Shown: positions 12,801 to 53,129 of the stretch, piece after piece
Layout of the letters: the number at the start of each line of letters is the position of its first letter
Position numbering within the stretch: position 1 is the first letter of the stretch
NCBI GenBank assembly: GCA_964658305.1
Contig: OZ210885.1
Span: forward strand, 9,672,001 to 9,736,000
Origin: Leptogorgia sarmentosa
Lineage: Eukaryota
Reading direction: 5' to 3'
Length of the DNA: 64,000 nt
Translations under genes and position numbers: made by a program
The notes under the pieces: model-generated
What the model saw: the letters and a program-made list of their open reading frames with translations, nothing else
Database searches by the model: none
Told to the model about the DNA's origin: nothing

Positions 12801-15800
12801 CGCCGCTGGGAGATCGCCAGTTTGTATTTTCTGCTGTATCTTCGTCAATCTCCATTAATACAAGAGCTTTCAGGTCTTCTAGCGCCCCTGACCACTTCAG
12901 TTTGTTCTTCGCTAAGCGAAAGTTACCGTACAAAATATTCTTAACAGATGTCATTGTTGGAGCGGAAAAGCACACGTCCGTACACGTTGAATGTGTGTGT
13001 GGCCACACGGGTAATGCGAACACGGGTAATGCCCACGCTGGACTATCGTCTAAGATTGCTGGTCGGCGTTTCAGTATTACTGTTGATATAGTTATATTAG
13101 TGTTAGATATAAACCATTTTTCTATATACTAAGAATTTCCTTAATCCCAACCCAAGCCCTAGAATCCTAACCCTGACCATTGTGGTCAGAATAATATTGA
13201 GGAAAAAAAGTTTTCATCACTAACGCTGAAAAAATGTGTCGAACTGGGGCTTGAACTATAGAACTGCAACGCACGCACCGCGTGTTTTACCACTTGAGCT
13301 AAATCGAGCTCGCTGCTCACAGTAGGTTATAGGGCACGTATGGCGAGGGAAGTAATTAGTATGCAAGGAGGGCGAGTGCCTTAGCGCCGGAAATAATTAG
13401 TATGTAAAGAGTAATTAGTAACGTAACCGCGGCATGTGTTCCAGATACGCGTCCGTGTTATAAAAGTAAACTTGTATGCATATAGAAAGGGTAGAATTTT
13501 TGGTAAAAGAAATGTAATGTGCGACTAAAAGTTTAAAAGATGAGGGTTAGTTGAATAAATGTCAAATAGTAAAGTAAATATGTATTGCGCCGGGCGGTAA
13601 TTAGCTGGCAGAAGAATAGCGAGTAATTAGTATTAGTCTATTATGACCGCAATAACCCAGGGAATAATGAATGAGACTTTATGTTTTTGTAAAAAGTTTA
13701 TTAATCGTAAAAATATTGCTCATGTACTTTTACAAGTCATATAGAGAATTTTAGTTTATGTGATGTGCTACGAAACCTAATATTTAATGGTCTTCATCAT
13801 CGCTGTCCTCTGTAAAGATGTAATCTTTTAACAGGTTTTTAATCAGAAATTTTCTCTTATCAACCGCTGCTTGAATAGCTTCTTCGGGATCAAAATTATC
13901 GTCGTTCACAAAGGCATCTTTTGTTTGCATTATTTTCTTATGCACAGGGTCATTCTTTAGTTGTTTCATCCACGAAAGACGATTCATATAGATACTTTCC
14001 AACTCATTTTGGAGCTTAGGCAGGAATTCGGAGTAAGCTTTTTGTCCAGCGGATTGCTCATCCAAGCCACTATGTATCAAATTCGTCTTCATTTCCTTAA
14101 AAGCCGTTTTATACTTTTGCATTGTTTCTTCTACCATTGGCATCCAAGGATCATTTTCTTCCTCCTCAGTTTCGTCGTCTGTTGTCACCGGACTTTCAGA
14201 ACTATGAGTTGAAGCAGTCGAAAAATCGCCTTCCGATTCCGTTGTCTGACTGTCTGTTTCTGACATTTCACTCTCTTGATCCTTTAATGGACAGTACATG
14301 TTTTCGTGCCGACGTAGATTGAAACGTCGATTAAATGCTTTCCCGCAGAATTTGCAGCTCATTGCGCTAGCAAGGACTGTGTAAAAATGCCTTGTTATTG
14401 AGCACTACCGCACTTTTATTTGAGCATATGAGCATGTGCTCATGTGGGAATGAGCATATGAGCATGCGCTCATGTGGGAATGAGCAATTTCGAGCATCGC
14501 TCACAAATGCTCAAAACTGCTCATGAGCACATGCTCATAAGACCCGATGGCCCGATTCATGGTGGCATGCACTACCCATTCTCAGCATGCAAACCCAAAG
14601 GGTCCCAAACAATATTCAAATATAAATGACTATGCTCTATTTAATAACAGCGATGATTGTAATTTGACAAATTTGTAGAATATGTCCAAAGAATTGCATC
14701 GTTTGGGATCCTTTGGATTTGCATGCTGAGAATGGGTAGTGCATGCCACCATGAATCGGACCATCGGGTCTTATGAGCATGTGCTCATGAGCAGTTTTGA
14801 GCACTTGTGAGCGATGCTCATAAGGCCCGATTCATGGTGGGCCTTATAGGGCTTTATAGGGCCAGAGCGGGCCAAATAAAATATCTTTCACATGCAAACG
14901 ATGAACCAATACTATTAGGAACTCGCATAGTTAACATGAGTCGTACACGTAGAAACTGTCCTGTTTTTGGCTGTGGTAGTACGAATCTTGCAAGGCTAGC
15001 TAATCATCTCGCTCAAATACATGATATGAATACGGAAGAACGCAGAGAATGGTTAAAGTGGAGCAAAATCGGGATTTGTGTACCTCGACAGAATGAAGAA
15101 CCAAAGGAACTTTATATGGAGAAAAGTGCCGAAAAACTAATAAAACGGCAGGAAGAAATGGAAAGAAAATTGAATATTTACTTACAAGCCGCCAAATTAA
15201 AGAAAAGGCCAGAGCAGCAACAAGAACATTCCAGCTCAGGAAAAGACAAAGATAAATGGCTAATATATTAACTGGTATACTGGAGTATGAGACAGCGCCT
15301 TTATTACTTGCTGAGAAGAAACGATGTGTAGTCAAAGTTTTACCACGATGAATCGGGCCATCGGGCCTTATGAGCATGTGCTCATGAGCAGTTTTGAGCA
15401 TTTGTGAGCGATGCTCGAAATTGCTCATTCCCACATGAGCACATGCTCATATGCTCATTCCCACATGAGCACATGCTCATATGCTCAAATAAAAGTGCGG
15501 TAGTGCTCAATAACAAGGCATTTTTACACAGTCCTTGCTAGCTGAATGAGCTGAAAATTCTGCGGGAAAGCATTTAATCGAGGTTTCAATCTACGTCGAC
15601 ACGAAAACATGTACTGTCCATTAAAGGATCAAGAGAGTGAAATGTCAGAAACAGACAGTCAGACAACGGAATCGGAAGGGGATTTTTCGACTGCTTCAAC
15701 TCATAGTTCTGAAAGTCCGGTGACAACAGACGACGAAACTGAGGAGGAAGAAAATGATCCTTGGATGCCAATGGTAGAAGAAACAATGCAAAAGTATAAA

Positions 15801-18800
15801 ACGGCTTTTAAGGAAATGGAGACGAATTTGATACATAGTGGCTTGGATGAGCAATCCTCTGGACAAAAAGCTTACTCCGAATTCCTGCCTAAGCTCCAAA
15901 ATGAGTTGGAAAGTATTTATATGAATCGTCTTTCGTGGATGAAACAACTAAAGAATGACCCAGTGCATAAGAAAATAATGCAAACAAAAGATGCCTTTGT
16001 GAACGACGATAATTTTGATCCCGAAGAAGCTATTCAAGCAGCGGTTGATAAGAGAAAATTTCTGATTAAAAAACTGTTAAAAGATTACATCTTTACAGAG
16101 GACAGCGATGATGAAGACCATTAAATATTAGGTTTCGTAGCACATCATATAAACTAAAATTCTCTATATGACTTGTAAAAGTACATGAGCAATATTTTTA
16201 CGATTAATAAACTTTTTACAAAAACGTAAAGTCTCATTCATTATTCCCTGGGTTATTGGGGTCATAATAGACTAATACTAATTACTCGCTATTCTTCTGC
16301 CAGCTAATTACCGCCCGGCGCAATACATATTTACTTTACTATTTGACATTTATTCAACTAACCCTCATCTTTTAAACTTTTAGTCGCACATTACATTTCT
16401 TTTACCAAAAATTCTACCCTTTCTATATGCATACAAGTTTACTTTTATAACACGGACGCGTATCTGGAACACATGCCGCGGTTACGTTACTAATTACTCT
16501 TTACATACTAATTATTTCCGGCGCTAAGGCACTCGCCCTCCTTGCATACTAATTACTTCCCTCGCCATACGTGCCCTATAACCTACTGCTCACCACTCTG
16601 GCCTGGCTAAATGCATATGATTATAGACCCGGGCAATCACTGTCCATAATTTACCAGGCCAGGCTACTTAGACGATTGTCCAGCGTGGGCATTACCCATG
16701 TTCTCATTTGAGAAATATCGGGTACTACCCGTTAAGGTCTTTGTTTAACGGGTGTTCTAAGATACAGTACCAACTGCGACGTTAGGAATTAGGTTTATGA
16801 GTTTGGAATAAGAAATATAATTTCCATCACTCTAACACTTTTTTCGTAACATAATCTTGGTAATGATTTTGTTCAATTTGTGTCTTCATATTTTATGTAT
16901 GCATTTAACAGTTTAACTGCATGTATACAACCGCGTGAATAAAGCTACTGCAGAAAGTTTGACTGGTTTGCTTGAGTTCAGAAGTCTATTGCAATTTTCG
17001 TTATACGAATAATGAAACGGCCATGCAAATTGTGGAAAATTCAGAAAGGGCAATTTACTTGTTAGCAAATATTTCAAGTTTCAACCGTTGTTAAAATGTT
17101 CTATTAAGTTAAAATATCTTCAACTTCAAAATATTTAAGTACTATTCGCGTCAGAGTTTTAACGGGTTGTTTTAGGAAATTCAACAAAGAGCTACAGTCT
17201 TGCTCACTATCTAAACCATAGAAACAGATTTAACGTTTCGATGAAACGTCCTTCCTCGAGAATTGGTGTGTTCACTAATGTATAGTTATTCAGTGGATAA
17301 CGCAATCTTACATGTGAACAACCATCCCGTTACAGGAACATTATAGATTGTTAATGCATAAGACTTCCTCCACTACACGAGGGGGAGGTGGTTGAAAATC
17401 GATTTCTTACACCAGTTGACAGGTATTACTATTTACGCATGCGTTGCCCACAATGAATTTTTCCACGATTCTTGCCCCATCTAGTCATCGATTATATACA
17501 GGATAATCTCGAGCCTGATATCAATTGGACTATATCAAATGTCATTTATACGTAACTATAGATACCGATCTTGAACAATATATATCTTGCGTCGCATCAG
17601 GAATAGGTAGAGTCGTACATGACAGAACTTCAGCATTCTGTAAGTTGTTGCTGGGTCTTCCAGCAAGACAAAATAGGTAGTAAGTATTTTTCCCGTATAT
17701 AGATGACAAATTTGGTGGGGATTTTAGTAATGGGATATTTTACGATTGGGTTAATCTGGTTCCAGATTATCTAACTACAATAAAGTTGTATTTATAGTAC
17801 TCAGTTGCATGTGTTGGTAATGGCTTTATTAACAGGCAGCAAAGAGTCTACTCACTACCTAAATAATTTAAACAGATTTTACGTTTCGAGCGAAGGCCCT
17901 TCGCTGGGATCGAATGTTGTGTTAAACTAATTCCTGACGAGGGCCCTTTTGCTGGAAACGTCAAATCCGTTTGTATCCCTTATAGGTATTGAGTAGACCT
18001 TTATTTGTTGTCGAGTTGCCATCTGTTACCTACACTGGTCACACATTCATATTTCAATTATTATCTATCATGGGTTATGTGTACGTTGACCTGAAACCGT
18101 CATCATATAGCTCTGAATGAAGTTGATGCATAGTTTGTCTTAAATCTTGCATGAGAATCCATTCCATAAAAACATGGTAAATTAGTAACTTACTGAATCT
18201 GTCGAAATTTAAAGCTGTTTATGAAATTGAAAGTCAATGCTTCAATGCTCGTATCCATATTATACTGATATACAATTTTCCTAGACTATTTTTAAAATTA
18301 AAATAATAACCTACTTCAAAACGGTCATTCTCATGTTTTCTTATATGTATTATATGTAAATGTACATTTCTTTCGGTTCCGGTTTAATTAAAATATGTCA
18401 GTACGAAGTCCTGGAATGGATTAAATGTGCAGTTTCAGGTTTCATAACAAAGCACAAAACGCGGATGTGGTGCAGTTTAAGGCAGAGTTTCCAGTCCATG
18501 CGCCTTCGATTTTCAAATATACAAATTTTCTTTAATTTTTAGAACACATCTGATATAACATCAGAAAATCAAAGTTATAGTTTATGCCAATTAACCGAAA
18601 TCTGCGTATTACATATACTGACACCTGCACGCTGATGATTTCCCGTGTTTTCTTCATGAATTATTAATTAATGCGTTTGACAAGTATATGTAGCCACGTT
18701 TTGTAAAAATTGTATACATTCCTAATAATGAATACGCCGAGTCGAAACGTGGAACAAACAATTCAAAAAATTTCTTGTGTTTGGATGTTTCTATTGTTTT

Positions 18801-33800: not shown

Positions 33801-36800
33801 AAAAGGCGAATTATTCCAAAAAATGAAAGCTTGCGCGGCGTTTTGAAGGGCTTAAACTCAAGCATTTTTTCTGAAATTTTGAACGGAAATACAAAACCTG
33901 ACAAAGTTTCCGTCCATCAACTAAAAATTGCTTTTGAGCCTTTAAATTTCGTGCGCAAGACATTTTCTATCTGTTGGAAAAAAACACTCCCCCCGGGTTT
34001 TTGAAAATTTAAATTACAAAATTTTTTCGTTTATTCTACATTATAAGTACTCAACCAATCCACATAAACCGAAAACTTTGTACCTCGAGCCCCTTTGCGA
34101 AGTTGAAAATCTCTTCAGTTTTTTTTTATACACCCTGTAGTGTGGTAACAATCCAAAACAATTGCCATTCATCTACATGCAAGCGTACTTGGGCAGTGCT
34201 GGTAGCCGTTTCGACATATCGAGCAAAGACCCTTAGTCGTTAATTAGTACTGGGGTCAGGGGAAAACACAAGGGTTTTTATATTAGTGAATATATGGAAA
34301 CCAAGTAAAAACCAATCGGATGGATTTGATACACCAGTTTTCGAAAGCCTTCGCCAGATAAGTGGAATCTTATCGTATCGTTTAGCCAGTGAAACAAAAT
34401 TTATCAAAAAAAGAAAGTAATTACCTAACAGCTGTGGAGCAATAGAATGCAAATTCTCCTCGATAACCGCAAAAGACCGCATCAACGACGTCTTGAGCAG
34501 TTCGATTTCTCTCGAGGGCTGGTCCAGAAAACGAAAATCTGACATTAAGGAAGGGAGATCGAATTGATTCACCTTTTCATAAAGCCAGTTAAAATTGAAG
34601 AACAGTTTATGTAGTTCATCAAATTGCTCGGAGGAGTGGAGGTGATAGGTCAGGTACTTGAAATAATAATCCTTGTTGCCTTCAAATTTTCCCCAATCAC
34701 CGTTCTCGGAATGACCACGAAGTGCCTTCACGAACAATCTTTGGACAGAACCTAGTTTGCCTCCTACTTTTGCACGTGCAAAACCCAAAAGGAGATCGTG
34801 GAGACGGTAGCTCTTCTTTCCATGGATATCAGATCCTGAAAATTATCGTTATAAGGCGAATTTCAAATGAGTGCAAAATTTTGGTTAGCGATCGCTTTCT
34901 TTTGAAATGCTTGCGACCAGCCAAAGTTAATGAGAATTGCTGACTGTTTGTATTTCAAAATAAAGCGTTCGCTAAAAGTCGATCGCGCGCCATTTCGCCC
35001 TGAATTAAATTCTGCCATTAGAGAACATAGTCACGTATGGTGATTCGAAACGTTTTTGTACAGGACACTAGAGCAGTCTGGGACTGCAGTCAGGCTATAG
35101 TACAATAATTTTTCCGATTTAGAATACCCCAGGGCGATGGAAGTATTTTCCATTCAATTCGATTTGTTGCTCATCTAGGAATGTCAGAGGAAAACACTGA
35201 AAATATTGGGCAAATGAACGGGCAAATTTGGCTTGCCCACATATGAGTCAACATATGATTATAGCTGGAAAATAATTTCCTTAGGCTTGCTTGACGTTGA
35301 TTTGATTAAATGTTCAGCCTAACAACTTGTTGACAGTTAATATACAGGTTTCGCAAAAGGAGCTGTAGTAAAAAAGCATTTGAAAATTTTCTCGTCGTAT
35401 TCGTGCATTTCATTTGATTGCATGAAGCAACAGACAAATTTAGCGATCACAAAAGTTTAAAAATAAGACAACAAGCAAAAAGCTATCATCACAGTTGGAA
35501 ATAGCGTGCTGAAATTAGCATGAATACAAAGTTTGAAGAATAAAAATTATAAAATGAGGAAATTGTGCCCAAGCAAATTTAGCACAGTTAACATACAATT
35601 TATAAAGTAGAAGTGATTTAACACCCATTTTCGTCTGAAATGGATATAATTTTGTTTGCTCTGATACAATAGTACACAAAATGAACTGTGTCTGGCAATG
35701 ATATTCCCATTTTATGATATTTCTTCTTTAAACTTTGAAGTTATAGTAATTTTTCCACGCTGTTTCCAACTGTGGCGAAGATTTTTGTCTATTATCATGC
35801 ACCGTGCCTTCATTTACCTTTTTGAATCATCGACTTCTTTTCGAGCTCATCAAGTATACGTCTTGCTTCACGACGGCTGCACGAAGTTCTTCCGGCTACT
35901 TTGGAAGACCAAAACATCTCAAGAATGTCTGATGGTACATCCGTATCTTCTGGAAATAAAGCGAAATCTAGAAACTTTTCTCGTATTTCTTCGTTCAAAT
36001 GTTGAAAGCTGGCGTTAATGGCTGTTAAGACGTTGTCGTAAGGATAAGCGTTGGTGGGATATATTGAACGTAATTTTACCAAGTCTGCTGTTTTGAGGTC
36101 ATTTAAAACGTCTTCCCAGTCTTGTTCGTCGCGAGTGTCGGCTAAACTTGAACCCACTAGGGACAGAGCTAGCGGTAGATCGCCGCAGTGGTTTAACAGT
36201 TCCTTTATAATTTGCCGCATGTTTGAACTAAACTTAGACTGCTCGTCCTCGGTGACTCGGGCAGTTTGATACAAGAGCTTGTAAGAATCATCCCGTTTTA
36301 AAAATTTGAGTTTATACAAAGCAGAACCTTGTAAACCGCGGACAACTTCAGAATTCCTTGTAGTTATCAATAATTGGCATTTTCCAGAGAGATGATCAAA
36401 TACAGAAGCGTGGTTTACACTCCAAACATCATCAAGAATCACCAAGCAATCTTTATCACTCTGCAATACATGGAAAACTACTTTATCGTCGTATGTGTTG
36501 ATACTTTTCGACTTATTTATTGGGGGTAAAATTAATCGCGTCGGAGCAGAAGGAAAGTTATCATGACTTCTGAGTCAGAAGGACACCAACTCTCATGACA
36601 GAAACATGGTAAAAACATAGGGATCATTGAAAGTTTATATGAAAGTAAATTAGCACTAGGGATCTTTTTTGAGAACGGTTTCCTTGTTATATCGCGGCAA
36701 TGAGTATTACATAAACCCTGGGAAAGGTGCACATACCGTATTTGCTTTTATCCAGCCTTGCGCGGCACGGATATCAGAGAACGTCATTTCTCCACCAATA

Positions 36801-39800
36801 TCTTTTATGAGGAGGTTAATCAGCGCTAGACAGTCTGGAGTTTCTCCAATGTCAAGCCATATTACCTGACGAGATTCTTTGGCAGCCCAAGCAACGGCCA
36901 GAGCTAAGATGGTCTTTCCCAGACCCCCCATACCACGGATACCAACGACGTCGCTCCCACGATTCCCAACCACACCAACTCTACTATTTCCATTCGCAAG
37001 TAACCTTAATATGTCGTTCACTTCTGACGGTCTCTCCACCATGTCACGAGGTAGACATCGCAAACCATGGGCAACTAACATATAAAATAAGAATTGATGC
37101 TGTATTAGTAGACCCACTTTTGTGTGCGTAACGAATGGACAATTAATTACATATATAACTGGCACACCCATTTGCTAACGCTGTATCGTGTCAATCTACT
37201 GGGCGTCCCAAACAAATGAAAACGTTACCATTGAAAATAATCTATTGTTAGAATTACAATGCCTCCGTGCCTCGCACTATAAGTTTAACCCAAGGGTGTA
37301 CAAATTGTTGAAAATTTCTTAATAGCTATCGAAATTGTTGTTATAGATTATTTTCAATGGTTGCGTTTTATCAGGGGGGGCTGTATGTATTTAAAAGGGG
37401 TTGCGTTTAAAAATGCACATTCACTGTTATTGTCTCAAACTGGCTACTTTTTCCCATAATCATATAGAGGGTAAATTTAATAAAACCTGATGAATGACTA
37501 ATGAAGAGGACATTTTTTCCTCATTCAGGGCAAAATTACTTCACCCTGATTGGCTTAATTTTCAGAATTTTTCACGTATGGCTTCCTCGCATTATTTGTC
37601 GTGTGTGAAATCGTCAAATTAAAATAGTTTAATAAATATTAAAGAAAATTCTGTTATCTGCCTGTGCCAAAACACTGCACGCGAAGTCTCTTTGATTGCA
37701 TACACGCCATTTTCCCAACTTTTTGCGTTGTACACCTGTGCCAATTTAGAAACGTTAAACTGGAGAATATTACGCAAACTATCTTACTGATGGACCAAAT
37801 ATTGACTGAATGCTAAAATACTAAACGTCTAACTGATATACCTACGTAACTGCTTAATTCATACATAAAATTAAGTGGCTTCTCAACAGATCCGAATATA
37901 CTTCTACAATTACTCTCGCTGGCTAATTTGTGGCGCGTAATCACATTGTAATATTTTTTTCAACAATTTGATACCTTTTGGTGGCGAATAATTTCTTTGT
38001 CTCTCATGATGACTCTCCGTCTTGTTGACATTTTGCTGTAAACATTTAATTTCATTGAAAGTACTCTCAATTTTGTCCGCATGGCTTTGAAGCTCCTTAG
38101 AATGATGTTCAAATTTTGCCGAGTGTTGTTCAAGTTCCTTTGAGTGTTCTCCAAGTTCCTTTGACTGATGATCAAATTTTTCCGAGTGTTGTTCCAGTTC
38201 CTTCGAGTGTTGTTCAAGTTCCTTTGAATGTTCTCCAAGTTCCTTCGACTGATGGACAAGTTTTTCCGAGTTTTTCGCGACACATGTTTCAACTTTTTCA
38301 ATTCTGCTGACCAGTTTTGAATGGATGTTGTCAAGTTTCTCTACCACGGCATTCATCTGCAGAGATACATGTAAAGAGCTATAAATATTTCAATTTATAT
38401 TAAATATTCATGAATAAACATTAAAGATTAAAATATCTGCAGGGATACAAATGATGCTTTATTCACAGAACAATGCATGTATGAATGTGCGATATTTTCT
38501 GGTCAGCATTAGAAATGAAATTATATTTCCAAGCATCATGCATTATTCTTTTTAGAAATATTGCCCCATTGTCCCACAATGTGCTCCAAAAGTGCGACCA
38601 AAGTAGCCGGAGGAACTTCGTGCAGCCGTCGTGAAAGAAGACGTATACTTGATGAGCTCGAAAAGAAGTCGATGATTCATAAAGGTAAATGAAGGCAGGG
38701 TGCATGATAATAGACACTGTTAAGGCAGCGATATTTAGCTATCACATCTTAAATTGCCATAAAAAGAAGCAGAAAGTTCTATAATTAAAAAATTTATATG
38801 TTTTTGGAACTTATTGATCGATTATAAAGCAAATTTAACAGTTACGGAATAAAAATAAATATAAAACGGGCCATATGCCGACAAAATTTACATTCGCGTT
38901 AGCATAAAAAAGGATTTCAAATTTCTCTTTAAAAAGCATAATTCAAGTTTCGTTATACTTCATTTCGGATTCATATTCGAAAGGCATGGTATAAGCGTTG
39001 CCGCCATTAGATTTTCGTTCTTTAAAATGCTGTAGGCCTAATTCAGACGTCGTACATTTCATGTGCCAAATCTAATGTTAACGAGCTAAGTTCTTTGTTT
39101 GAGTTCAATTGGATTAGGCTTGGCACATCAAAAGTTCGACGTCCCAAGTTTCAACTGGCCTTATTCCACAGACACCAAAGAATATGCTCAGGTTGGATTC
39201 GTATTGAATAAAACAATGTTCCTGTAGTTATAAAGCAGTAGCATGCAAAATACTGCATGGCATAATTTCAACAAATAAACTACATGACCTCATGCATAAA
39301 CACGTCACAAGGTGTGATGCATACAGACAATTCTGGTTTTATAGTAGTAAAAGCAGGAATCTATGAAAACAAATGAACGTTTCCGTCCCGACCACCAGAA
39401 CCAGAACCGTGCACGACAACCTTTCGTGACGTCATTATACATAAGGTCTATTGAAATTTGACATGCAGGTCTGCTAGTTTTTAAACTTTTCAGAAAATTG
39501 TAGTTCAACGTTGAAACATCAATAGCAATTTTGCAAGGAAAAGTTATTGTTATCTACCAATTGTTTTGCTTAATGGGGTGTCCTAGGGCTAGTTTTTTCC
39601 TAAAAGAGAATTTATATTAGTATTTATCAGTAATTGATATGTAGTGTGTTTTATTTATCGCTCCACGCTTCGTTCTAAGTATTCTGTTGCAAACGTCTCC
39701 CCCAAAAAAGTATGCACATGTTTGACTTGTAACGTTTAACGGGTAAAGCAAAACTCATAAAAACAGCATTATCCTAAAAAAGCACAGATTGCGTTCCCAC

Positions 39801-41444
39801 GCTGAAAATTTGCACTCGCTCGCATTTGAAACATGTCTTATATTAATTTGAACTGCGTCTTCCTACTTATTCAACGACTGTTAAATGAAACATCAAAATT
39901 AAAGTTCCTCAAACCTTTGTGTCGGCGTTCAAATTGAAGTTTTTCATACAACGGCAAAGTTCAGCCACACTTTCTGCAATTAGTTTTGCGTGACGACCGT
40001 CAACAAGAATGTCTGGAAATAATGAAAAAAATTTATCTTGAGTATCACAAACACTATAAATATATCCCTGCTAATGCGCGTAGCACGAAGGATACATAAA
40101 AAAGCATGCCTTGCTGTCCATACAAGCTATTTGATAAGCATGGTCTGTTGTCGCTATTAGCAAACGTCAATATGCGGCCAGTGTAGTAGATAGGGGATAA
40201 CAACATCAGCAAGCAGCACATGTCCTACCCACTACCTACAATGCAAACAGGTTGGACGTTTTGAGTAAAGTAGATTTTTTGCATATTAGACAATTTTTAA
40301 AAATTTCGAAATAGTACAATTCAGAGCTACATCGTTAAAGAGCATCCCAAAGTTTGTAAAACTGTAAAGTTTGGTTGAGAAAATGTTGTAAAATGCGAAA
40401 AATATGACCCTGTAATGTTTTCAAATTTTGTATATTTTAGTATTACCCATGAAAAATTTATATCCCTATCGAGAAAAGTCTATCAATTTTGAGTGCCTAA
40501 TACTAAAATGAAAAAAATTGGCATCGATAAATACTGTATATGATTTTGAATACAGTATTAAAGGCATTTAACTTTTGCACTTATGTGAAGATCTATCACT
40601 GTCACCAATTAAACACTAGATTTCTACATAAAGTTTCAAAGTAGCTACACTATCGCAGAATTCCAACGATTGATTGTACTGAGAATTGCATTGAATTGTA
40701 TAATATGGTAATATAGGAATCAAATTGGATAATAATAATAATAAATGAATAATAGAGTTTGAATAAGGGGGTTTTCCTACAGGAAATAAAAAATGATCTG
40801 CGCAAAACATATTTAAAGGAATGATGAGATTCCGGCAATAATGGTAATAATACAGTACCTGTTTTATTCCAGAAATCTAGTTCATCACAAATCCTTTTTT
40901 CGTCAACTGCTGGAAAATTAATTTTTTTCACCAAAGATTCCATTCCTTGAAACGAGTCATTGAACATATGTACTGTCCATTCAGAGATGTTACAATGAGC
41001 CCATGGGTTTCTGATGTCCGACCGAACTTTGTTTGCTTCAGCTGCAGCACCAGAAGATACGAAAGGAGCTGCCTTGCCGATAATAGTCAAAAGTGCTGAC
41101 ATATCCATGGTTTCATCAAATCCAGTGAAATGTGCCATAAAGTCCGTGACGAATAGTTTCGCCAACGAGACAGGATCTTTAACAGCATAATCATAAGCTG
41201 ATATAGTAGGCTTGTGGATAATGTTGTTGTTAATGTTTTGATATTGTAGGTTATGGGTGGAAGGGGGTAATTTCTTCCTTCTGCATGCTGCGAAATCTTG
41301 CTTGTGAATTTCATCAGGTGGTTGGCATAAAGAATGATACCATTTCCCAAATTCAGTGGCGACAACTTTCCTTAATGCAGGTGCAAGAACTTTGGTAAAG
41401 GCAATGCCAACTAAAACCCAATGTTGTTCTTCCTCTGATATCAT
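3243..41444 (-). CDS. Apaf-1-like STAND protein: HEPN-like (DZIP3/CXorf38-type) - coiled coil - NB-ARC - WD40 repeats; 14 exons in window, 3' end not found
   Basis: Exons with GT-AG boundaries and matching phases: 41444-40859, 40012-39915, 38356-37975, 37074-36737, 36460-35818, 34835-34425, 32013-31768, 28814-28596, 26287-26078, 23666-23423, 21905-21667, 18952-18846, 6038-5630, 3859-3243. Total 4749 nt (1583 codons) with no stop. Motifs: Walker A GMGGLGKT, Walker B CLVILDDVW, LLITTR, CGDLPLAL, LHD, many GH...WD-type repeats. Confidence 0.88.
5630..6038 (-). CDS. Exon 13: WD40 repeats
   Basis: VWNLSDG...VRFSSDRLQVVIGCKDNHVFIWDW; acceptor TTTTTTAAG. Confidence 0.85.
6294..6862. mobile_element. 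Two copies of a palindromic non-autonomous element (Crypton-like), one inverted inside the other
   Basis: 6294-6361 is the reverse complement of ~6589-6657, and ~6358-6587 is the reverse complement of ~6659-6862; AACAATT termini and a GGGCGAAGCCC hairpin loop. Confidence 0.65.
8281..11097 (-). CDS. LINE ORF2: apurinic endonuclease plus reverse transcriptase
   Basis: APE motifs LNETRL, GDLNANM, SDH; RT motifs NYRPISIL, QFGFR, DLQKAFD, GIPQGSILGPLLF, FADD. Frame stays open upstream to the ORF1 stop at 11170. Confidence 0.97.
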   Translation of the reverse strand: MGMLNITSLPKHIDEIRVILADECLDILALNETRLDNTINNQVMCISNYDLIRIDRSRTGGGVCLFVKTSLNYLERKDLTRDNLEAVCVEIRKPSTAPFIVGTIYRPPSASVDSFAAIEQLVQTIDDENKEFYILGDLNANMLDTSNNATKNLNSIMELYQLSQTINTPTRVTTTSSSLLDVCLTPTPTRLITSQVIPIAISDHYMIFVVRKINIQRKQNSHKKVEIRNLKYFNAESFQADLRGQEWELLDSNLCVDEMWNTWKTLFLNILDWHAPIREKRVQSKPNVPWLTSTIKKQIRERDRLKSLAIRHKSDNYWNAYKTLRNRVTDALRETKAAYYKGEFEKVKHDPKKAWKTVNKILNRKQESREINCLETQRGQISHPAELAECFNNYFTNIGPDIAKNIDSGDRNFKDYITTTSSSFNFQTVSESNVYRLLLSLNPRKSTGIDKIPAKIIRIAAPVVTNSLTKIFNMAITSATVPSEWKIARVTPIFKNGPRNQLNNYRPISILPVVSKLFEKVLCEQLQEYLDTQELLSPRQFGFRKFHSTASALLDSTNEWFINMDRGLFNIALFLDLQKAFDTINHDILLAKLNLYGLQKPSLNLLESYLTNRTQMCSVNGALSGTKLVTCGIPQGSILGPLLFLIYVNDLPNSLEYSSTRMFADDTALTVSGKSIQDVEVAINHDLTNVKQWLSANRLSLNLVKTEYLLIGSRYNINNLLSAPNVFVGDTPIKRVKETKALGVHIDEFLSWDKHIDKIAKKISSGIGAIRKLKSCVDHNTLICAYNALILPHLDYCCEVWDTIGATLSDRLQKLQNRAARVITGRKNEHGQSELALDELKWKPLNERRAHFVASLMYKITHELAPKRLIDLFQGTPSSYYYNMRGSSTKLFLPKPKTEYLKKSLSYRGAKLWNSLPDEARNKFSLASFNSYIRHLAN
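11170..12954 (-). CDS. LINE ORF1: coiled coil plus SGNH-type esterase domain
   Basis: IAGDSIL, VKSFSG, HVGTND, GGLHLN; NRF motif; internal ~42-aa tandem duplication. ATG 12954 preferred because the GTG at 13023 lies in the host TIR. Confidence 0.9.
   Translation of the reverse strand: MTSVKNILYGNFRLAKNKLKWSGALEDLKALVLMEIDEDTAENTNWRSPSGGTWKFESVLLAVTWQTKSMNISFEGEKGKDLTERVISYLKEESVKEHNSIASAQSVTKDGGDITTTEGETSAQVVYNELSTEEESAKEHNSIALAQSVTKDDGGDTTTIECETSAQVVCNELPTEVSEIKLKLNQHIVETKAELQQIKENFADQLDQLKELNLNGGTKVTEYCLTSLAHDNATLRHENTQLRRDNDELRERFNNCSYIVSDLNTKIKNIEDEKLSLVTALKLLQEDSKSVSLNNRDAIHNTWHTPGHKARANVHNTSANHACQTKTARSADMIAQEQVIKTPNRFSLLSTDHDSDKDLEANDEADLTESSTSTIRQRNSNSDPNKHDKQRNKESQSTRTSAEIPKDKAKTNNRKNTTNANSNDHKSGKLVFIAGDSILQHVHGWNLSNDDQRVSVKSFSGSKVEDMQDYIKPLLRKKPDEIILHVGTNDIKDNSKTAEVVAAGILNLGTQVKESLPRTNVCISGIITRKDKSNIQEKINTVNDILKRVSDLNKWTYIDNTNLDYTCLNRGGLHLNRKGSSSLTRNYSNHLSRN
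13229..13309 (-). other. tRNA-like sequence with Pol III A and B boxes inside the outer TIR element
   Basis: Minus strand: TAGCTCAAGTGGTAAAAC (A box) ... AGTTCAAGCCCC (B-box-like) ... T-run; no convincing anticodon arm. Confidence 0.5.
13784..14362 (-). CDS. C2H2 zinc finger plus acidic linker plus helical domain (192 aa), left-TIR copy
   Basis: CKFCGKAFNRRFNLRRHENMYC; C-terminal NDPVHKKIMQTK...EEAIQAAVDKRKFLI, which from memory resembles small ORFs of invertebrate Polintons. Confidence 0.75.
   Translation of the reverse strand: MSCKFCGKAFNRRFNLRRHENMYCPLKDQESEMSETDSQTTESEGDFSTASTHSSESPVTTDDETEEEENDPWMPMVEETMQKYKTAFKEMKTNLIHSGLDEQSAGQKAYSEFLPKLQNELESIYMNRLSWMKQLKNDPVHKKIMQTKDAFVNDDNFDPEEAIQAAVDKRKFLIKNLLKDYIFTEDSDDEDH
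14937..15271 (+). CDS. Small zinc-finger and coiled-coil protein in the unique core of the Polinton-like element
   Basis: ATG at 14937: MSRTRRNCPVFGCGSTNLARLANHLAQIH (C-x4-C...H-x4-H) followed by a charged helix. Confidence 0.6.
15546..16124 (+). pseudogene. Right-TIR copy of the zinc-finger gene with a nonsense codon at position 3
   Basis: ATG AGC TGA versus ATG AGC TGC in the left copy; open from ATG 15609 to 16124, which omits most of the zinc finger. Confidence 0.8.
17846..17998. mobile_element. Inverted pair of Penelope-like terminal fragments
   Basis: 17846-17908 is an imperfect reverse complement of 17932-17998; contains CTGACGA-GGGCCC...GAAACG, resembling a minimal hammerhead core. 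Related fragments near 17190-17260 and 19130-19250. Confidence 0.5.
18846..18952 (-). CDS. Exon 12: WD40 repeat (not in ORF track)
   Basis: GDLEWAKHVAVSADDQYVVSLSKDGNILFSMKSSIK joins exon 13 to give IK|VWNL; the donor GTGTAG is weak. Confidence 0.7.
21667..21905 (-). CDS. Exon 11: WD40 repeats
   Basis: VLTASWDGSIRVWNL...SSSEDGTFKLWNF; phase 2 to phase 1. Confidence 0.9.
22156..22240 (-). mobile_element. 5'-truncated L2/CR1-type 3' tail
   Basis: Minus strand: TAGGG...CCCTA stem-loop, AATAAA, (TATC)n tail; same layout as the LINE end at 8019-8100. Confidence 0.45.
23423..23666 (-). CDS. Exon 10: WD40 repeats
   Basis: LVSASDDGTIKIWDL...LKGHESDVTSVAVS; donor AG|GTGAGT. Confidence 0.9.
26078..26287 (-). 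CDS. Exon 9: WD40 repeats
   Basis: FIATVGYGDKTIKLWK...LVGHTDWVRCV; phase 1 to phase 1. Confidence 0.88.
28596..28814 (-). CDS. Exon 8: WD40 repeats
   Basis: LQGHSDVVSCLAVSQSGTILASGSWDESTILWR; donor GATG|GTAAG. Confidence 0.9.
31768..32013 (-). CDS. Exon 7: end of helical domain and first WD40 repeat
   Basis: Splicing to exon 6 gives QLLGRLL; LVICGLDNGSITIFDLDTG. Confidence 0.85.
32140..34137. mobile_element. Non-autonomous Tc1/mariner-type element (~2 kb) in intron 6
   Basis: CAGGGTGTATAAAAAAAAA ... TTTTTTTTATACACCCTG with TA on both flanks. Confidence 0.8.
32307..32746. mobile_element. Nested palindromic MITE
   Basis: Near-perfect inverted arms of about 165 bp, TA flanks, located inside the 32140-34137 element. 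Confidence 0.75.
34425..34835 (-). CDS. Exon 6: LHD motif and helical domain
   Basis: SYRLHDLLLGFAR...YYFKYLTYHL...LFFNFNWLYEKV; acceptor TTTTCAG, donor TTAG|GTAATT. Confidence 0.9.
35818..36460 (-). CDS. Exon 5: NB-ARC Walker B, sensor 1, GxP, winged helix
   Basis: CLVILDDVW, LLITTRNSEV, CGDLPLALSLVG, FALFPED; acceptor TTGCAG, donor AAAG|GTAAAT. Confidence 0.92.
36737..37074 (-). CDS. Exon 4: NB-ARC start with Walker A
   Basis: LPRDMVERPSEV...VVGIRGMGGLGKTILA; acceptor TGTTAG, donor ACG|GTATGT. Confidence 0.9.
37975..38356 (-). CDS. Exon 3: coiled coil of HSKELEQ heptads
   Basis: TGCAG|ATG acceptor, AAAG|GTATC donor; 21-nt tandem units encoding heptads. Confidence 0.8.
38598..38716 (+). 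repeat. Inverted 119-bp copy of the exon 5 3' end and its splice donor
   Basis: Reverse complement of 35786-35904 with a few substitutions; also visible as the matching ORFs at 35698 (+) and 38463 (-). Confidence 0.9.
39035..39161. mobile_element. Short Harbinger-like MITE remnant
   Basis: AGGCC...GGCCT ends with internal inverted arms GACGTCG..TGTGCCAA / TTGGCACA..CGACGTC. Confidence 0.45.
39915..40012 (-). CDS. Exon 2 (98 nt, not in ORF track)
   Basis: Acceptor TTTTTTTCATTATTTCCAG, reads DILVDGRHAKLIAESVAELCRCMKNFNLNADTK, donor AAG|GTTTGA; bridges phase 1 to phase 0 exactly. Confidence 0.7.
40859..41444 (-). CDS. Exon 1: N-terminal HEPN-like domain
   Basis: ATG at 41444 (MISEEEQHWVLVGIAF...); DPVSLAKLF...DMSALLTII...RSDIRNPWAH with R-x4-H at 41012-40995; donor AG|GTAC at 40858, phase 1. 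Confidence 0.8.
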
Positions 41445-41689
41445 TATCGTTCTATGAAGTAAACATAAAATAATGGTGATACAATTTTAGCTACCAAAGC
41501 ACAAAGCTTTTGTAAATAGTACAGACATAATTACTTTCTGACGTTTTAATGTTTTACAAATTTGTGAAAGTAGAAGTTTCTTTGAAAAGACTGGTATGTC
41601 CTTTGAAAATACTGTATGAGTAACCCAGTTTTGAAAAATCAGACAAGCAAGATTTATTGAATTTGTAAAGCGACATATGTATATTTATA

Positions 41690-46761: not shown

Positions 46762-47212
46762 GTTATATAGTTGGTGTCAAAGTTCAATTTTCCTGTTTGC
46801 TGATTGGACAAAACCGTATCACGTGCCGGTCCACAAAACGTCATGTTCGCCAACCGGTCAAAAATCAAAAAATTATTGACCGGGCAACAATTAAATGGGC
46901 ACAATGCGCATGCGCGTCAACCGTGAAGTCCAAAGTTCATTCAATCGTACGATGTTTTGAAATTTAGTAAAATGTCGACTGCTGTCACTGTTTTTTGTTT
47001 TCAAAGTTCACTCCAGTATTAAACCGGTGAATTCATTCATATTTTGACACTAAACTATATAACAAAACACTTATTTACTGAAACCTCGAGAAACATTGTG
47101 TTTTGTGGCCCCTCGACCGCCATTGTTGCCCTCGGCTTCGCCTCGGGCAACAACGGCGGTCTCGGGGCCACAAAACACAATGTTTCCCTCGGTCTCAGTA
47201 AATAAGTGATAA
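46762..47212. mobile_element. Crypton-like palindromic non-autonomous element
   Basis: CTGATTGG near the 5' end; ~140-bp terminal hairpin 47070-47208 centred on GGCTTCGCC. Confidence 0.55.
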
Positions 47213-47230
47213 TTAATACACAGGCAGAAA

Positions 47231-50200
47231 CAGGGGCGTATCCAGGATTTTTCGTACGTTAGTCAAAAAAATTTTCCGAACATCCAGGGGGGTGAGTAAT
47301 TTTGACAAGCGGGGGGGGGGGGTAGTTGTTAAACGAGAAGCGACTGTTTCGCCCAATTTCAGGGCTCATCAGCATGCCTAGGTAACGCACAAAACCATGG
47401 TTAATGGTATTTTGTGGTACAGACATGGACAGCCCTTTTCTAAAGGCCTAAGCTGCTGGTTTTAAGGCGCCAGGACTCGCCTTCACACCTTTGCTGCGGA
47501 GCAAAGGAGTTTGGTTGGACATGGGGACTATATGGGATATTTTTTAGGTGTGAAACCGCTCTATTTTCACACCATCCCAGTCGATTCCAACCCTTTACCC
47601 CCCTTCCCGGGGCCCGTCCTACCTAATCTAAACCTAAGTCCTAACTTGAAATACATGCAAAGCTTATTGTAATCTACATTCAAAATTGTTATTTAATCGC
47701 ATGTTGACGTTGTATATAGGAATATTTTGTCGTTGCATATAAATGATCAAGATCAATGGTTGAAACTGATCATAGAATTGATCACGAGAATAACTTTTTC
47801 AATGTCGCGTATTTTTGACGAAATGTGTTCAAAACCCAAATATTTTTGGCGTTCCTCTCGAAATCGAATTTTGTTATGATTATCTCAACGAAACAGTTGG
47901 CTGTCTTTGGTTTTGAGAAAGTAGTATAAAAATTAAGACCGTTAATGTTCGCCGTATAACCAGCTCGACCTGATTGAAGCCTTTGTTACAGCAATGAAAG
48001 CAAGATTTTTACCAAGCTTTTTAAGTTTACCGACTGAGAAACCTCGAAATTTATATTTAATCATTGGGTCATTCATACGTGTATACTGTATATAATAAGT
48101 TATTGGTTATGATTGGTTACTAAACACCGCCACGCGCCAATTTATAGAACGTTAGGGAAAGGCGACAAAAAAATCAGGTAAATTTCAACCTTGTGTTTCC
48201 AACGGCAAATTTATCGATTACTTTTTCGATATCTGGGACGATCTCCTGATGAATCTTCATTAGGGCTAGACCATTTAACCGTTCTTCAACCATTGTGCTA
48301 CGTTGGTAATTTTTAAGTGTTCTTAATGCCGAAATGGTTCTTTCACACTCACAAGAAGTGATGGGAAGAGTTCCCAAAATTCGAAGAATGACTTTGATGT
48401 TCTCAAAACCATCAAAGGTTATAGCTTTCAAAGTTGTGGCAATGTTGTCAGGAAGGGGACCTTCACATGTCTCCCAATAATTTGTCCAAAGTGACAGTTC
48501 TGCATCTAAAGCTAACGGGAAAGGCAAATCGTCAATATAAAAATTGGTAACAATTTTGAAATCATTCCGCCAATCTAGCCCTTTCTCTTTCAAAGTCATC
48601 ATCTTGGTCGGCACAACGCTTAACCCTTTATAAACGTTAACGCTGTCGGTGTCAAATCTGTGTTGTAAAGCTAAATTAATATGGTATACTAAAGGAATAG
48701 TTATGGTACGCTTGTAATACTCGGAGATTGACTTACATGGAGGATTGGATCTAGTCGTTTGTCTCCCTACAGTCCGTGGTTTGCTTTCTTCTACCTCGAC
48801 CTTCTCTGCTAAATTCAACGTCTCGGCATACCAAATATCGTGGTAAGAATCGATAGAATTTCTAAAGTTAGTGAAATCATTTTTAGTGGTGTTAATTAAA
48901 TGAATACCATCCATAATATCAATACTCTTTCCCTGTAGTAATAACGTTACTGGGAGAAGGCGATCAAGAACATTCTGAGAAACGACCAAAGCTGCAATAA
49001 ACTCAAACTTTGTGACAAGATCAAAAAAATTAGAGGCATCAGTGACAAGGTTTGGCCTATAGCTCCCTTCAACATTATCTCTCATCTCTCTGAGAGTATC
49101 ATATAAAGGGACAAACAGCTCAATGAATGTATCCAAACCAGCAATACGCTCCACCCATCTAGTCCGACAAACGTCTACCAGCCGTCTCTTCTGACTTTCC
49201 CTTTCAGAATAGTTGCGGACATTTTCTTCAAAAGGTATGTTGCGTGTCTGGGAGATATTAATAAAATTTGATACATCTTTAACATGTTTCATCATAGTAT
49301 TTACCTCAACAACAGTCAACGAATCACATACAGCTAAGTTGAGTCGATGACTATAACAATGTGTGTAAAGGGCTTTTTCGTTCAGACGTAAAATATTAGC
49401 TGACAAACCATTGATATGCCCAGCAACAGCACCTGCACCGTCGTAACCTTGCCCCCGACAGTCATCAATAGATAGAGTTAACTCATTAAGGGCATCTAAA
49501 ATCAACTTGGCGAGTTGCTCGCCACTTAGTCCCCACCTACACTGTAGGAAAGCAATAAATTCTTCCCTAATATTCAAATCAACGTCTACAAAACGTAAGA
49601 CGAGAGACATTTGTTCATTGTGAGAGGAGTCTGCAGCCTCATCTGCAATTATAGAATAAAACTTACTAGCCTTAACATCTTGAATGATCTGGTCACTGAT
49701 CACTTGACCACAACACCTAATAATCTTATTTTGGCTAGTCTTAGATATATAACTCTTATTTTTACCACAATTTTTCAGATGGTTCTCCAAAACTTTGTCC
49801 CCAGCCCGGACTCTAAAATTAAGAGATTCTATAAAATTGCCAACTCCCCCCGTAGAGTAACTGCCAGCCTCCGGATGGTATTTAGCATCATCACGATGAC
49901 CACGTAATGGTAAACCAAGACGGCCACAAAAAACTACCGAGTCTAGAATTGAGGCGAGTTTGTTTCTATTTTCTTTAACTTCTTGTTTGATATTGCTATC
50001 CAAAATGACCTCTATAGGCTGTGCTTTTCCTGACATTTGGGAAAGTAAAGATGTCAATATAGGAAAGGTACAAGCATGCAGTCCCATTTCCCCACTCAAA
50101 CCCTGTCCAGCATGATTTTTTAAAGTATATGCTGCACCACTCCAACGACGCAGAGGCTCAGAAAATAAATTATGGATTTTGCTAGATTTACCAGGAAAAC

Positions 50201-52469
50201 GATCTCCAAACAAAACACATGACAAGCAGAATGCCCCATCTTTTGATGGTGAATAACAGAGCCAGGAATATAATTCCAGCCAACTGTACCTAAAGCTTCT
50301 GCCATTTGTCTTAGGAAAAAAATAATTCTTGTCAGGCCTAAAGACATTTTTAATAAGGTTGCAAATTTCAGAAGAGTTCATTCCCTTGACCATATCTCGG
50401 AACATTGCAACATCAAAATTGGTGCTAGATGATTTTACCTGTTTTGCAATAGGTGTTTCACCTGTTCTAGAAACAGTGCTTTTTATCTCTGTGGAAGTGC
50501 TAGGCTTATTTGGATCTAAATGTAATATGTTGTGGGCTTTGGGCTTAAAAACAGACTTCTCAGCTACATTAAAAAAATTAGTAATATTTGTGGCTTTTTT
50601 GGGAGGAATTGCAGATACTTTTTGCTTCTTGGTACATGTTTGGGAAGTGGCAGCTACAGGTTTACGTTTTAGCTGCTGTTTATGAAAAAGAAGAGGGACA
50701 AAATGATTTGACTGGAATGTTCTTCCAGAAGCTACAGTACCTTCATAACAAAAAAGAATGTGAAGATTATCTATACTTTTCTTTGGACTTAAAGTTAAAC
50801 GTGGTTGAATCATGCGATTAAACAACAATTTAAATCTTGGCTCCCCACAGTCAGGATAATAGGTAAATATATTCCTATTTAAAACAGAAGCAAGACCCAA
50901 TATGCAAAGAAAGGATGACCACTTTTTCTCATTGCAATTAATAATGGCCTCTTGTCTAACCAGGTTGGCTTTAATGCAACGTGTATCCAAACACTCCTGA
51001 GTGACACACATTGGTAAAATATTATTAACGTTGCTGAAATACTCAGCATGGTCATTGACAACAGAAGAGAAGCAGGGGTGCTCAGAATAAAATTCCGCAT
51101 TGGTGAAAAGCTCTATTGATGTCAAAACTCTTAATGACTGCATTAGACTATTGTTACCTACTTGTACCAAGGACACAGAACTATACAAGCAGTTTCCAGT
51201 AACATCAGATCTAAAATATAAAATAATATATCAGCTGTGATTCCAAAATATTCACTAATGAAGTATTAAAACAGCTGCCTTGTATCTCTAATACATAGCC
51301 CGGAAAAACAATGAGTAAATGGTGTCTGGTTACACTGAATCAGTCTGAATGGCACTGGGCAGTGGGCAACATCTTGTTGCATCTGCCATTATACATGCTG
51401 TAGAGGTCATATTACATAAAGCTTTGTCACATAGCCATGTGCTTCAGGGCCTGTAGTTTACACTAGATAAATATTATAGTAAATATATATCAAAGTCAAT
51501 AGTTAAGTAAACGAGGCAGAAACAAAGTATAAACAAACTGAAATGCCTGTATAAAGTCGCTGTATTTATGTAAATTATGATATGATATTATGTAAATTTC
51601 ATCTTATTATAATGCGCGTGGCGCACTGACGCGGTGACGCCGAATTCATATCATAGCATGTGCGTAAGACATGTATTAATCGACTGCTATAATGCTATTT
51701 TAGTTAGAATAATAAAGTATATTTACCTTAAGGCCGTGCAGAACTTTTTCTTTTCTTGAGCATGCTTCGGAATGTATGATTCTGCTCCAAAATTCCGTGC
51801 GAGAAAGAAGCTATTGCTATACACAGCACCCAACAATTCATCAATAGTACGCTTCGGTACGTCATTGACTTGCTTTTTCATATCAGCTTCAATATCTTTA
51901 AGATATTGCTGATCGTTCTTCTCTAAGGCAGCCTTTACAGTTTCGTAAATGCTGGCTGACATTGTCGAACAAAAATTTTCCGATTTCACTTCGAATACGT
52001 TAACCTTTGCAGTTTGTAGCTTGCGCGGCCAAGTAGCGATCAGAAAGGACCTGACCTTTCTGTGCGGTGCGTGCATACTATTAGCAATGAGCGGCTTGAT
52101 CGATCAAAAAAATTCAGCCAATAGAAATTGAGAACTTTTTTGAATTAGCCAATTGAAAAGCCGGTATTTCTGCCCCTGATCGCTCCATCGATCAGGACTC
52201 CCCACAGATCGCGCAAAATTTGAGCACAGCCAATCAGATGGCTAGAATCGCCCTAAATCGCGCAAAACTCATGCGTAAGACCGCTTTTCTGCTCGTTCAT
52301 GTTCGAAGGCTAAACTACTGGATGATATTTCAGAACTGGACTGTTGAACATTTTAGGCAAGACACTGCACGAAGTTTGATAACTGGATTGATAATTTAAC
52401 TCATTAATTTTATGGCCGATTTTTACCTCAGTCGCGTGATCGATCTGATCACCCCTGGATCCGCCCCTG
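47231..52469 (-). mobile_element. Intact autonomous hAT transposon, 5239 bp
   Basis: TIRs CAGGGGCGTATCCAGG and CCTGGATCCGCCCCTG (16 bp, 1 mismatch); exact 8-bp TSD GGCAGAAA at 47223-47230 and 52470-52477. Confidence 0.95.
48174..51962 (-). CDS. hAT transposase (THAP12/ZMYM1-like: TTF zinc finger, DUF4371, hAT dimerisation domain) with N-terminal OTU/vertnin-like domain; 2 exons, ~1090 aa
   Basis: Exon 1 51962-51727 (AG|GTAAAT), exon 2 51210-48174 (TTTTAG|A), phases match. Motifs WLCYS..DGAFCLSC, LPLRGH, IADEAADSS, GQGYDGA, HCYSHRLNL, TRW, CERTIS, RLNGLALM; N-terminal TGNCLYSSVS...LRV..IEL...NHFVPL. Confidence 0.93.
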
Positions 52470-53129
52470 GGCAGAAAGCTAAAAACATCATACACTACAG
52501 TCATGCTTTGTAGCGGGAAATTCTAACTTTTTACACGTCTCTGCGACGCAATGATTGCAATTTTCAGGGCACCAGATTAACTTGTACATTTAATATATTT
52601 AATAGAGAGCTAGGGCAATCTTTCTAGTTTTAAAGTGCCCAGTTTAATTTGCATGTACATGTGCCAAAATTAACAAAAACGTCAACAATATATGTCTACA
52701 GATTTCACAGTTCGAAAGGAAGTGGCGAAAGGAAAACAATTAAATTATTCCACAGAATCAAAACACTTCACTTATAAAAACTCTTTGATATCAATCACAC
52801 TGATGAATAAAGCAACTTTGTTATTTCACGTAGTTCGGTGCCAGCGACATAATTATTTGTTACTGATTCATTAGAGAGAGTATATAAAATCGGCGGATTA
52901 TCGCACAACGTTTGTATTTTCAACAATATATAACATAATCGATATCATTGAAAAGATTGGGCTACATTTGGTTTGGGATACAAAGATATTTTAAAGAAAG
53001 AGATTTAAAAGGTAATCTTCAAGCTAACATTATATGCAGTTAGATTTGCAAGTCTGAGAGATCATCTGACCATGTCGGTATAATATCTATAATATTCGAA
53101 CATTAATTGGCTTATAAGCTATTATAATA

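Follow-up and report, generated by a model that had tools for sequence, protein, structure and literature searches.

Can a cut-and-paste transposase carry a deubiquitinase of its own? The question is raised by a hAT transposon in Leptogorgia sarmentosa (assembly GCA_964658305.1, contig OZ210885.1, positions 9,672,001 to 9,736,000 of the forward strand; this whole stretch of 64,000 nucleotides is referred to here as the window). The element occupies window positions 47231-52469 on the minus strand (5,239 bp, unbroken), and a sequence-only reading had proposed that its transposase is fused to an OTU/vertnin-like cysteine protease domain. We find that the element is an intact hAT cut-and-paste transposon, and structure prediction makes it fairly probable that its two-exon transposase opens with an OTU-fold Cys-His deubiquitinase that likely stays attached to the rest of the protein. 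The features of the transposase gene, in window coordinates, are:

51727-51962, minus strand: coding exon 1, 78 codons plus 2 nt, predicted to supply the N-terminal helices and first strand of the OTU domain
51792-51794, minus strand: Asn57, candidate third catalytic residue
51211-51726, minus strand: GT-AG intron in phase 2, 516 bp, with an acceptor position common to relatives
48174-51210, minus strand: coding exon 2, uninterrupted up to a TGA
50685-51210, minus strand: putative catalytic part of the OTU domain, assigned from a sub-threshold Pfam OTU match and predicted folds
51191-51189, minus strand: codon of Cys86, the predicted nucleophile
50705-50703, minus strand: codon of His248, the predicted catalytic base, which aligns with the His of VCPIP1 NHYIPLV
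50345-50684, minus strand: low-complexity linker, predicted to be disordered (predicted local distance difference test score, pLDDT, <50 at residues 258-339 in the homologue P0002)
50076-50342, minus strand: zinc-finger-like DNA-binding region, with CxxC at residues 407/410 and His457
49407-49970, minus strand: DUF4371 region with catalytic Asp602 (49643-49641) and Asp669 (49442-49440)
48243-48395, minus strand: hAT C-terminal dimerisation domain (Pfam Dimer_Tnp_hAT, PF05699) with catalytic Glu1035 (48344-48342)

The element has the hallmarks of the hAT superfamily, namely an 8-bp target site duplication (TSD), terminal inverted repeats (TIRs) within 10-25 bp, a dimerisation domain and all of the DDE residues. 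The two TSD copies (GGCAGAAA), at 47223-47230 on the 3' side of the element and at 52470-52477 on the 5' side, are identical as had been claimed, and the TIRs, 16 bp each, are complementary at 15/16 positions. A scan of the whole window for 8-bp direct repeats around 12-bp inverted ends gave four matches, and because the three others are palindromic 8-mers forming parts of longer inverted repeats, the hAT element is the only TSD-like case in the window. The Pfam match to DUF4371 is strong (E=1.8e-21) and that to PF05699 (E=2.4e-6, 27.7 bits) is above its cut-off of 21.4. Both catalytic Asp residues are invariant in 44/44 proteins, as are the core residues D, D, E, H and W, and the core C is present in 43/44. 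We take the core motifs to be the CxxH and W motifs, and the zinc finger is presumably of the 'TTF-type', the label given to it in the sequence-only reading.

The predicted transposase begins with an ATG at 51962 on the minus strand and is read through two exons to give 1,090 aa with no internal stop, in agreement with the uninterrupted two-exon open reading frame (ORF) described previously. The predicted donor is AAG/GTAAAT at 51726 and the TTTTAG acceptor ends at 51211, with the joined junction reading FCTALR-SDVTGNC. Twelve GT-AG pairs keep the frame, and compared with the 11 others the chosen pair fits the consensus best and yields the same junction, FCTALR-SD.TGNCLYSS, as the NCBI models P0002 and P0003. 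This splice is supported at the sequence level because NCBI gene models of cnidarian relatives (Dendronephthya, Hydractinia and Xenia) contain a homologous exon 1 joined at the identical place; exon 1 of the window is 52% identical to residues 2-78 of P0002 and was aligned in 32 relatives, and in unspliced ORF calls of relatives extending that far the residues directly ahead of the same R/S position are unrelated. At a distant locus, L002, a TTTTTAG acceptor falls on the codon and in the phase seen for the window intron; five in-frame donor candidates at L002 were considered and none was convincing. The gene models also predict that the domain is not skipped by a downstream start, the annotated relatives beginning upstream of the OTU domain with the same exon 1. 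In a model of exon 2 alone, residues 1-17 (the Cys loop) have pLDDT <50, and the Cys loop of the exon-1-bearing homologue P0002 is confident, a comparison of different proteins and alignments that is only suggestive. A stop-free frame of 1,018 codons (48174-51230) contains the Cys, the His and the entire transposase core, and the fusion itself is therefore independent of splicing.

Residues ~1-255 are predicted to form an OTU-fold domain, with exon 1 supplying part of it. The sequence-only reading had placed the domain at residues ~70-260; the models agree on an OTU domain and revise its extent, since exon 1 is included. In the AlphaFold model of P0002, which is 76% identical to the window protein over the exon-2 OTU part, residues 1-255 are mostly at pLDDT 80-98, followed by the disordered linker (258-339), the zinc finger and the core. 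A Foldseek search with this model gave four matches at E<=1e-3, all to OTU proteins (VCPIP1, TRABID, A20 and Cezanne), and in a VIA realignment of 216 Foldseek candidates OTU structures occupy 50/50 of the rows shown, including OTUD3 (Z 13.2, root-mean-square deviation [rmsd] 3.2, 136 aligned), VCPIP1 (Z 13.1, rmsd 3.6, 186 aligned) and A20 (Z 11.8, rmsd 4.0, 190 aligned; model residues 23-258 on chain residues 24-267). When the window's own exon-2 model was compared with 48,161 chains in an unbiased search, ranks 1-25 were all OTU structures, and OTU proteins account for 27/30 and 29/30 of the ESM Atlas matches. A single-sequence search of PDB sequences gave no match; profile searches of the same sequences found OTUD1 at E=0.099 and then at 0.0017. 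The family profile matches the OTUD1, OTUB1 and VCPIP1 sequences, with NHFVPL aligning with NHYIPL of VCPIP1. The Pfam OTU model (PF02338) matches 20/30 family members at E<=0.1, and 7/38 scanned relatives pass its cut-off. A Pfam match to MbnB (E=0.011, 2/30 members) was rejected as chance. We note that the window copy carries two extra residues (LS) at ~50790, ahead of the last OTU strands; the 97%-identical P0044 lacks them.

The Cys near 51190 and the NHFVPL near 50700 pointed out earlier correspond to Cys86 and His248, and both are conserved among relatives. In an alignment drawn from 338 proteins (288 rows matching the OTU profile), Cys is kept in 119/122 rows covering it, with Ser in the other 3/122, and His in 207/211 aligned rows; both are present in 79/83 rows covering the two positions. 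The two most conserved OTU columns are the G before NC and the His, and in the P0002 model a helix is predicted to begin at residue 86, with the His strand at 247-254. The earlier remark that T replaces the usual D before GNC is correct, and T occurs in 20/117 relatives; the residue three before the Cys is otherwise S in 38, N in 35, D in 21 and another residue in 3. The position is thus variable in the family and a T there is ordinary, and we rejected it as a sign of inactivation. The residue two after the His is Val in 168/181 rows, so the third triad residue, if there is any, is located elsewhere. Asn57 is a candidate (D or N in 28/33 rows), which we presume by analogy with the upstream Asp of A20.

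These conservation patterns bear on the proposal that the domain serves to bind ubiquitin or as a scaffold and has little or no catalytic activity, like the vertebrate pseudo-OTUs vertnin and FAM105A. Vertnin provides a precedent, as an OTU-like domain without catalytic residues (PMC10318531; papers are cited here by PMC number, from excerpts), and both the Cys to Ser change in 3/122 relatives and the candidate status of the third triad residue are consistent with such a role. However, a scaffold would not need the Cys and His, which rank with the best-conserved positions in sequences averaging 38% identity, and we consider the proposal improbable.

How widespread the domain is can be judged from a search with the transposase core alone, which returned 418 proteins, the best 120 of which were assessed for an OTU domain. 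At least 200 aa precede the zinc finger in 57/120, and the OTU profile matches in 57/57 of these, down to 38% core identity (17 of them are in the profile seed, 38 were not in the earlier OTU search, and a few matches are partial). The named hosts are all cnidarian (Dendronephthya, Paramuricea, Xenia, Hydractinia, Hydra and Porites), the closest being octocorals. Among 44 proteins with both regions, OTU and core identities are correlated (Spearman 0.69, with 0/1000 permutations as high); 10/13 supported splits in the OTU tree are also in the core tree, and 0/8 strong splits conflict. This agreement shows shared descent, not functional coupling. Comparison with the related locus L001 gives ratios of non-synonymous to synonymous substitution rates (dN/dS) of 0.17 for the OTU domain, 0.14 for the zinc finger, 0.09 for the core and 0.48 for the linker, the values deriving from one pair with dS of 1.3-2.0, near saturation, and a frameshifted L001. 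At the level of sequence, purifying selection on the OTU domain is shown by these ratios. Of 134 differences, 40 were listed, and the 25 of these that are coding (9 synonymous, 16 non-synonymous) are uninformative on selection. Since the domain is family-wide, is kept by purifying selection and has a tree that follows that of the transposase, these comparisons indicate that a cnidarian hAT clade has long had it as a fixed component and that it is not a one-off capture; the OTU-hAT fusion described from this copy stands, and it is not special to this copy. An origin as a neutral passenger or gene-model artefact, in which a piece of a host gene happens to precede an ordinary transposase, is scarcely credible given the single unbroken 1,018-codon frame, the presence of the domain in all 57 long-enough relatives, the purifying selection and the match of the OTU and core trees.

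The OTU subtype extends beyond this clade. A profile search of 1.84 billion representatives gave 2,622 clusters at E<=0.001 and 1,099 at 1e-10, of which the best 150 clusters were viewed. Among 25 proteins in which a long tail follows the OTU domain, the same finger comes next in 17, and in most of the remaining 8 the sequence stops in or close to the linker. The exceptions are P0291, which is hAT-like with an N-terminal OTU domain before a C17orf113-type finger (E=1.2e-5), and the proteins P0218 and P0040 described below. In P0039, which is hAT-like and divergent, the OTU domain is C-terminal (core profile E=2.8e-8). P0039 and P0291 suggest, as far as sequence can tell, that the same OTU subtype has been captured repeatedly by hAT-like transposases. 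There are 0 relatives among 84 pattern matches in a scan of viral contigs. A metagenome scan yielded three loci, of which L003 is a chance match in an unrelated high-GC locus and was dropped. In L001, an integrase-like ORF (4377-4727) follows the related hAT, and is perhaps a retroelement insertion; a TIR-like pattern gave no end there.

Several observations, together with the limits of the dN/dS comparison, weigh against an active OTU deubiquitinase fixed throughout the clade. The PF02338 match to the window is below threshold (E=0.0014-0.0023, 18.9-19.5 bits, against a cut-off of 23.3), and the confident model is that of the homologue: the exon-2-only model has a best Z of 7.0 with its Cys loop at pLDDT <50, and a Foldseek search with it gave 0 matches at E<=1e-3. 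The canonical D before GxC and the D/N after the H are absent. Fewer than 200 aa precede the finger in 63/120 core relatives, among which four match in part at E<1e-3 and the others are too short to judge, and some of these may truly lack an OTU domain. Some OTU enzymes are inactive on di-ubiquitin despite a triad, and substrates differ (PMC3705208), and the OTU domains of Helitrons and alloherpesviruses had not been tested as of the excerpted text of PMC9741609.

The ~85-residue linker contains a basic patch, KRK (50669-50667), resembling a nuclear localization signal, and, at 50585-50571, a motif (IxxFF) similar to a PCNA-interacting box. IxxF[FY] is found in 50/79 linkers (shuffles: mean 5.9, max 13) and the strict PCNA-box pattern in 11/79 (shuffles: mean 0.6, max 4), the window copy lacking the Gln. 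The pattern used is what we take a PCNA box to be, and because the related sequences are not independent, the IxxFF motif is a lead. The linker also bears on the suggestion that the domain is a self-processing protease that releases itself from the transposase, like viral papain-like leader proteases. Its N-terminal position ahead of a long disordered linker would suit such a role, and viral papain-like proteases do process polyproteins (PMC10318531). No conserved Gly-Gly self-cleavage site was found across 79 linkers, however: Gly-Gly occurs in 13/79 (shuffles: mean 6.4, max 12) at scattered positions, with none in the window linker, and in P0039 the same domain is C-terminal. Self-processing, one of two functions raised by the sequence-only reading, thus has little in its favour and seems quite unlikely; a deubiquitinase that stays fused is the likeliest form of the protein.

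Given such a fused deubiquitinase, transcription, splicing and translation of the element would yield a single protein, which would bind the element ends and cut and paste the DNA through its DDE core, the established mechanism of hAT elements. In the nucleus, with the protein bound to the element ends, the tethered OTU domain may remove ubiquitin locally, either from the transposase itself or from chromatin or repair proteins at the excision or insertion site, and the outcome could be protection from proteasomal removal or dampened damage signalling. The conserved IxxFF motif may dock the transposase on PCNA. The domain would have been captured once, early, by the cnidarian hAT clade and retained since. 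Local ubiquitin removal is modelled on proposals for Ginger1 (PMC2836005) and Helitrons (PMC9741609). Elements of this clade thus likely bring their own tool against host ubiquitin tagging, if the predicted fold is a guide to function; that they counter host silencing, as also raised by the sequence-only reading, is speculation.

Two apparent host proteins contain the same OTU subtype: P0040 of Porites lutea, with Death domains, and P0218, with a triple OTU and LRAT. These immune-signalling contexts are consistent with an active isopeptidase for a ubiquitin-like modifier (NEDD8, SUMO or ISG15-like) or for H2A-ubiquitin, working in trans on silencing or immune machinery, as are the reports that viral OTUs can cross-react with ubiquitin-like modifiers (PMC3705208) and that Ginger1 has either OTU or Ulp1 in the same slot (PMC2836005). 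The top structural matches are ubiquitin-cleaving OTUs, however, and a domain joined covalently to a transposase that binds DNA is likelier to act locally; we regard this alternative as unlikely. A tethered deubiquitinase remains our preferred reading, and it can be extended to a wider picture that is possible, if on balance doubtful. In this, an undescribed old cnidarian hAT clade is built on an active A20/VCPIP1-like OTU deubiquitinase that the PCNA-box-like linker motif aims at replication or repair sites; the subtype has joined at least two other hAT-like lineages (once C-terminally) and is also in Death-domain immune proteins, so may shuttle between immunity and transposons, and it could be the active ancestor of vertebrate vertnin.

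The ends and non-coding parts of the element are:

52454-52469, minus strand: 5' TIR, 16 bp
51963-52453, minus strand: GATC/GATCG-rich 5' subterminal region, with candidate transposase-binding sites
47247-48173, minus strand: 3' non-coding region, with other repeat pieces and a degenerate hammerhead-like motif
47231-47246, minus strand: 3' TIR, 16 bp, with one mismatch

GATC occurs 10 times in 508 bp at the 5' end (51962-52469), or 19.7/kb, compared with 2.5/kb across the window. In the 3' region, a degenerate motif at 47341-47391 (minus strand) resembles a hammerhead ribozyme, with CUGAUGA, a 4-bp stem and GAAAC; stem I pairs poorly and the Rfam Hammerhead_3 score is 18.8 bits against a cut-off of 48.5 (E=0.54). 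We presume that it is perhaps a Penelope-type remnant. At gathering thresholds Rfam gave 0 matches in the window, L001 and L002. A 154-bp non-coding segment (window 47459-47603, L001 3814-3967) is 76% identical between the two loci and may be a conserved cis element or a nested repeat common to both; the remainder of the 3' regions does not align. Positions 47688-47884 are a repeat at a contig depth of 22,000-44,000, versus ~100-500 for the coding region. Directly outside the 3' TSD, within a high-depth repeat, is a hairpin palindrome (47068-47208) with 69-bp arms that are 87% complementary, and the hAT may have inserted beside or into a small non-autonomous element. The hAT element is present as contigs in three runs of one sample; its flanks are high-copy repeats, and 0 of the 12 listed joints among contigs of one sample skip it.

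The element is ~6 kb upstream of an Apaf-1/NLR-like gene, whose exons span 3180-41486 (minus strand) and encode NB-ARC (35813-37174), APAF1 helical (34243-34842) and WD40 (3180-3881) domains; an unannotated 278-codon ORF (40653-41486) may be its N-terminus. Also in the window are an apparently intact long interspersed nuclear element (8284-13128, minus strand), with a GDSL esterase domain in ORF1 and endonuclease and reverse transcriptase in ORF2, and nested inverted repeats (13483-16425) containing two near-identical C2H2-finger ORFs (13787-14404, minus strand; 15555-16121, plus strand).

Many transposon superfamilies have acquired ubiquitin or SUMO proteases. The present element represents a large, undescribed hAT clade by an intact copy that is ready for assays: Hermes, Tol2 and TcBuster hATs have standard cell assays, and as the OTU domain of this intact hAT is separable and has one catalytic Cys, the purpose of the protease is directly testable. 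Among the cnidarian gene models that bear the label 'P52rIPK-like' or 'ZMYM1-like' are unannotated fusions of a protease with a transposase, and the closest relatives with a name come from cnidarians and are annotated '52 kDa repressor of the inhibitor of the protein kinase-like'. The element resembles hATs of the P52rIPK/PRKRIR-like type (DUF4371 plus dimerisation domain) in its 8-bp TSD, short TIRs, DUF4371, DDE core and hATC. It is possibly a member of the Tip group described in PMC3942097, the DUF4371 match being the only feature so far compared that it has in common with BuT2 of that group. At 1,090 aa the transposase is longer than those of BuT2, Hermes and TcBuster (612-643 aa; PMC3942097) through its predicted ~255-aa OTU domain and linker, and at 5.24 kb the element is just above the 2.5-5 kb range of hATs given there.

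The domain itself is, by its model, an OTU fold with traits of the A20 subfamily. A20, Cezanne, TRABID and VCPIP1 are the top four Foldseek matches and give the longest structural alignments (178-197 residues), VIA ties OTUD3 and VCPIP1, and the His-loop motif NH[FY][VI]PL aligns with VCPIP1. The identities are 12-17%, and at about 255 aa the domain is smaller than the 300-350 aa of this subfamily (PMC3705208). Any sequence resemblance of the domain to vertnin (VRTN) is conjectural. Vertnin is likewise an OTU-like domain fused to DNA-binding domains, but according to the excerpt of PMC10318531 it lacks all of the catalytic residues and has helix-turn-helix domains and no transposase.

In the literature searched, which did not extend to Repbase and subscription journals, no description of an OTU domain on a hAT transposase was found. 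OTU domains on transposons are already known in other elements, and what would be new here is the hAT carrier. Helitrons and Helentrons similarly bear deubiquitinase-type domains with intact active sites, which have been proposed to shield transposition proteins from the proteasome (PMC6431247, PMC9741609). Catalytic residues are retained in the VTD domains of Helitrons, and the viral and transposon group cleaves K48, K63 and K11 chains (PMC9741609). These are rolling-circle elements, however, and VTD is a different deubiquitinase class (PMC6431247, PMC9741609). Ginger1 is also a fusion of a cut-and-paste transposase with OTU, has cnidarians among its hosts, and has been proposed to use its OTU or Ulp1 domains in the ubiquitin pathway; it differs in having a Gypsy-integrase-type enzyme with a C-terminal protease (PMC2836005), whereas here the enzyme is of the hAT type and the putative protease is N-terminal.

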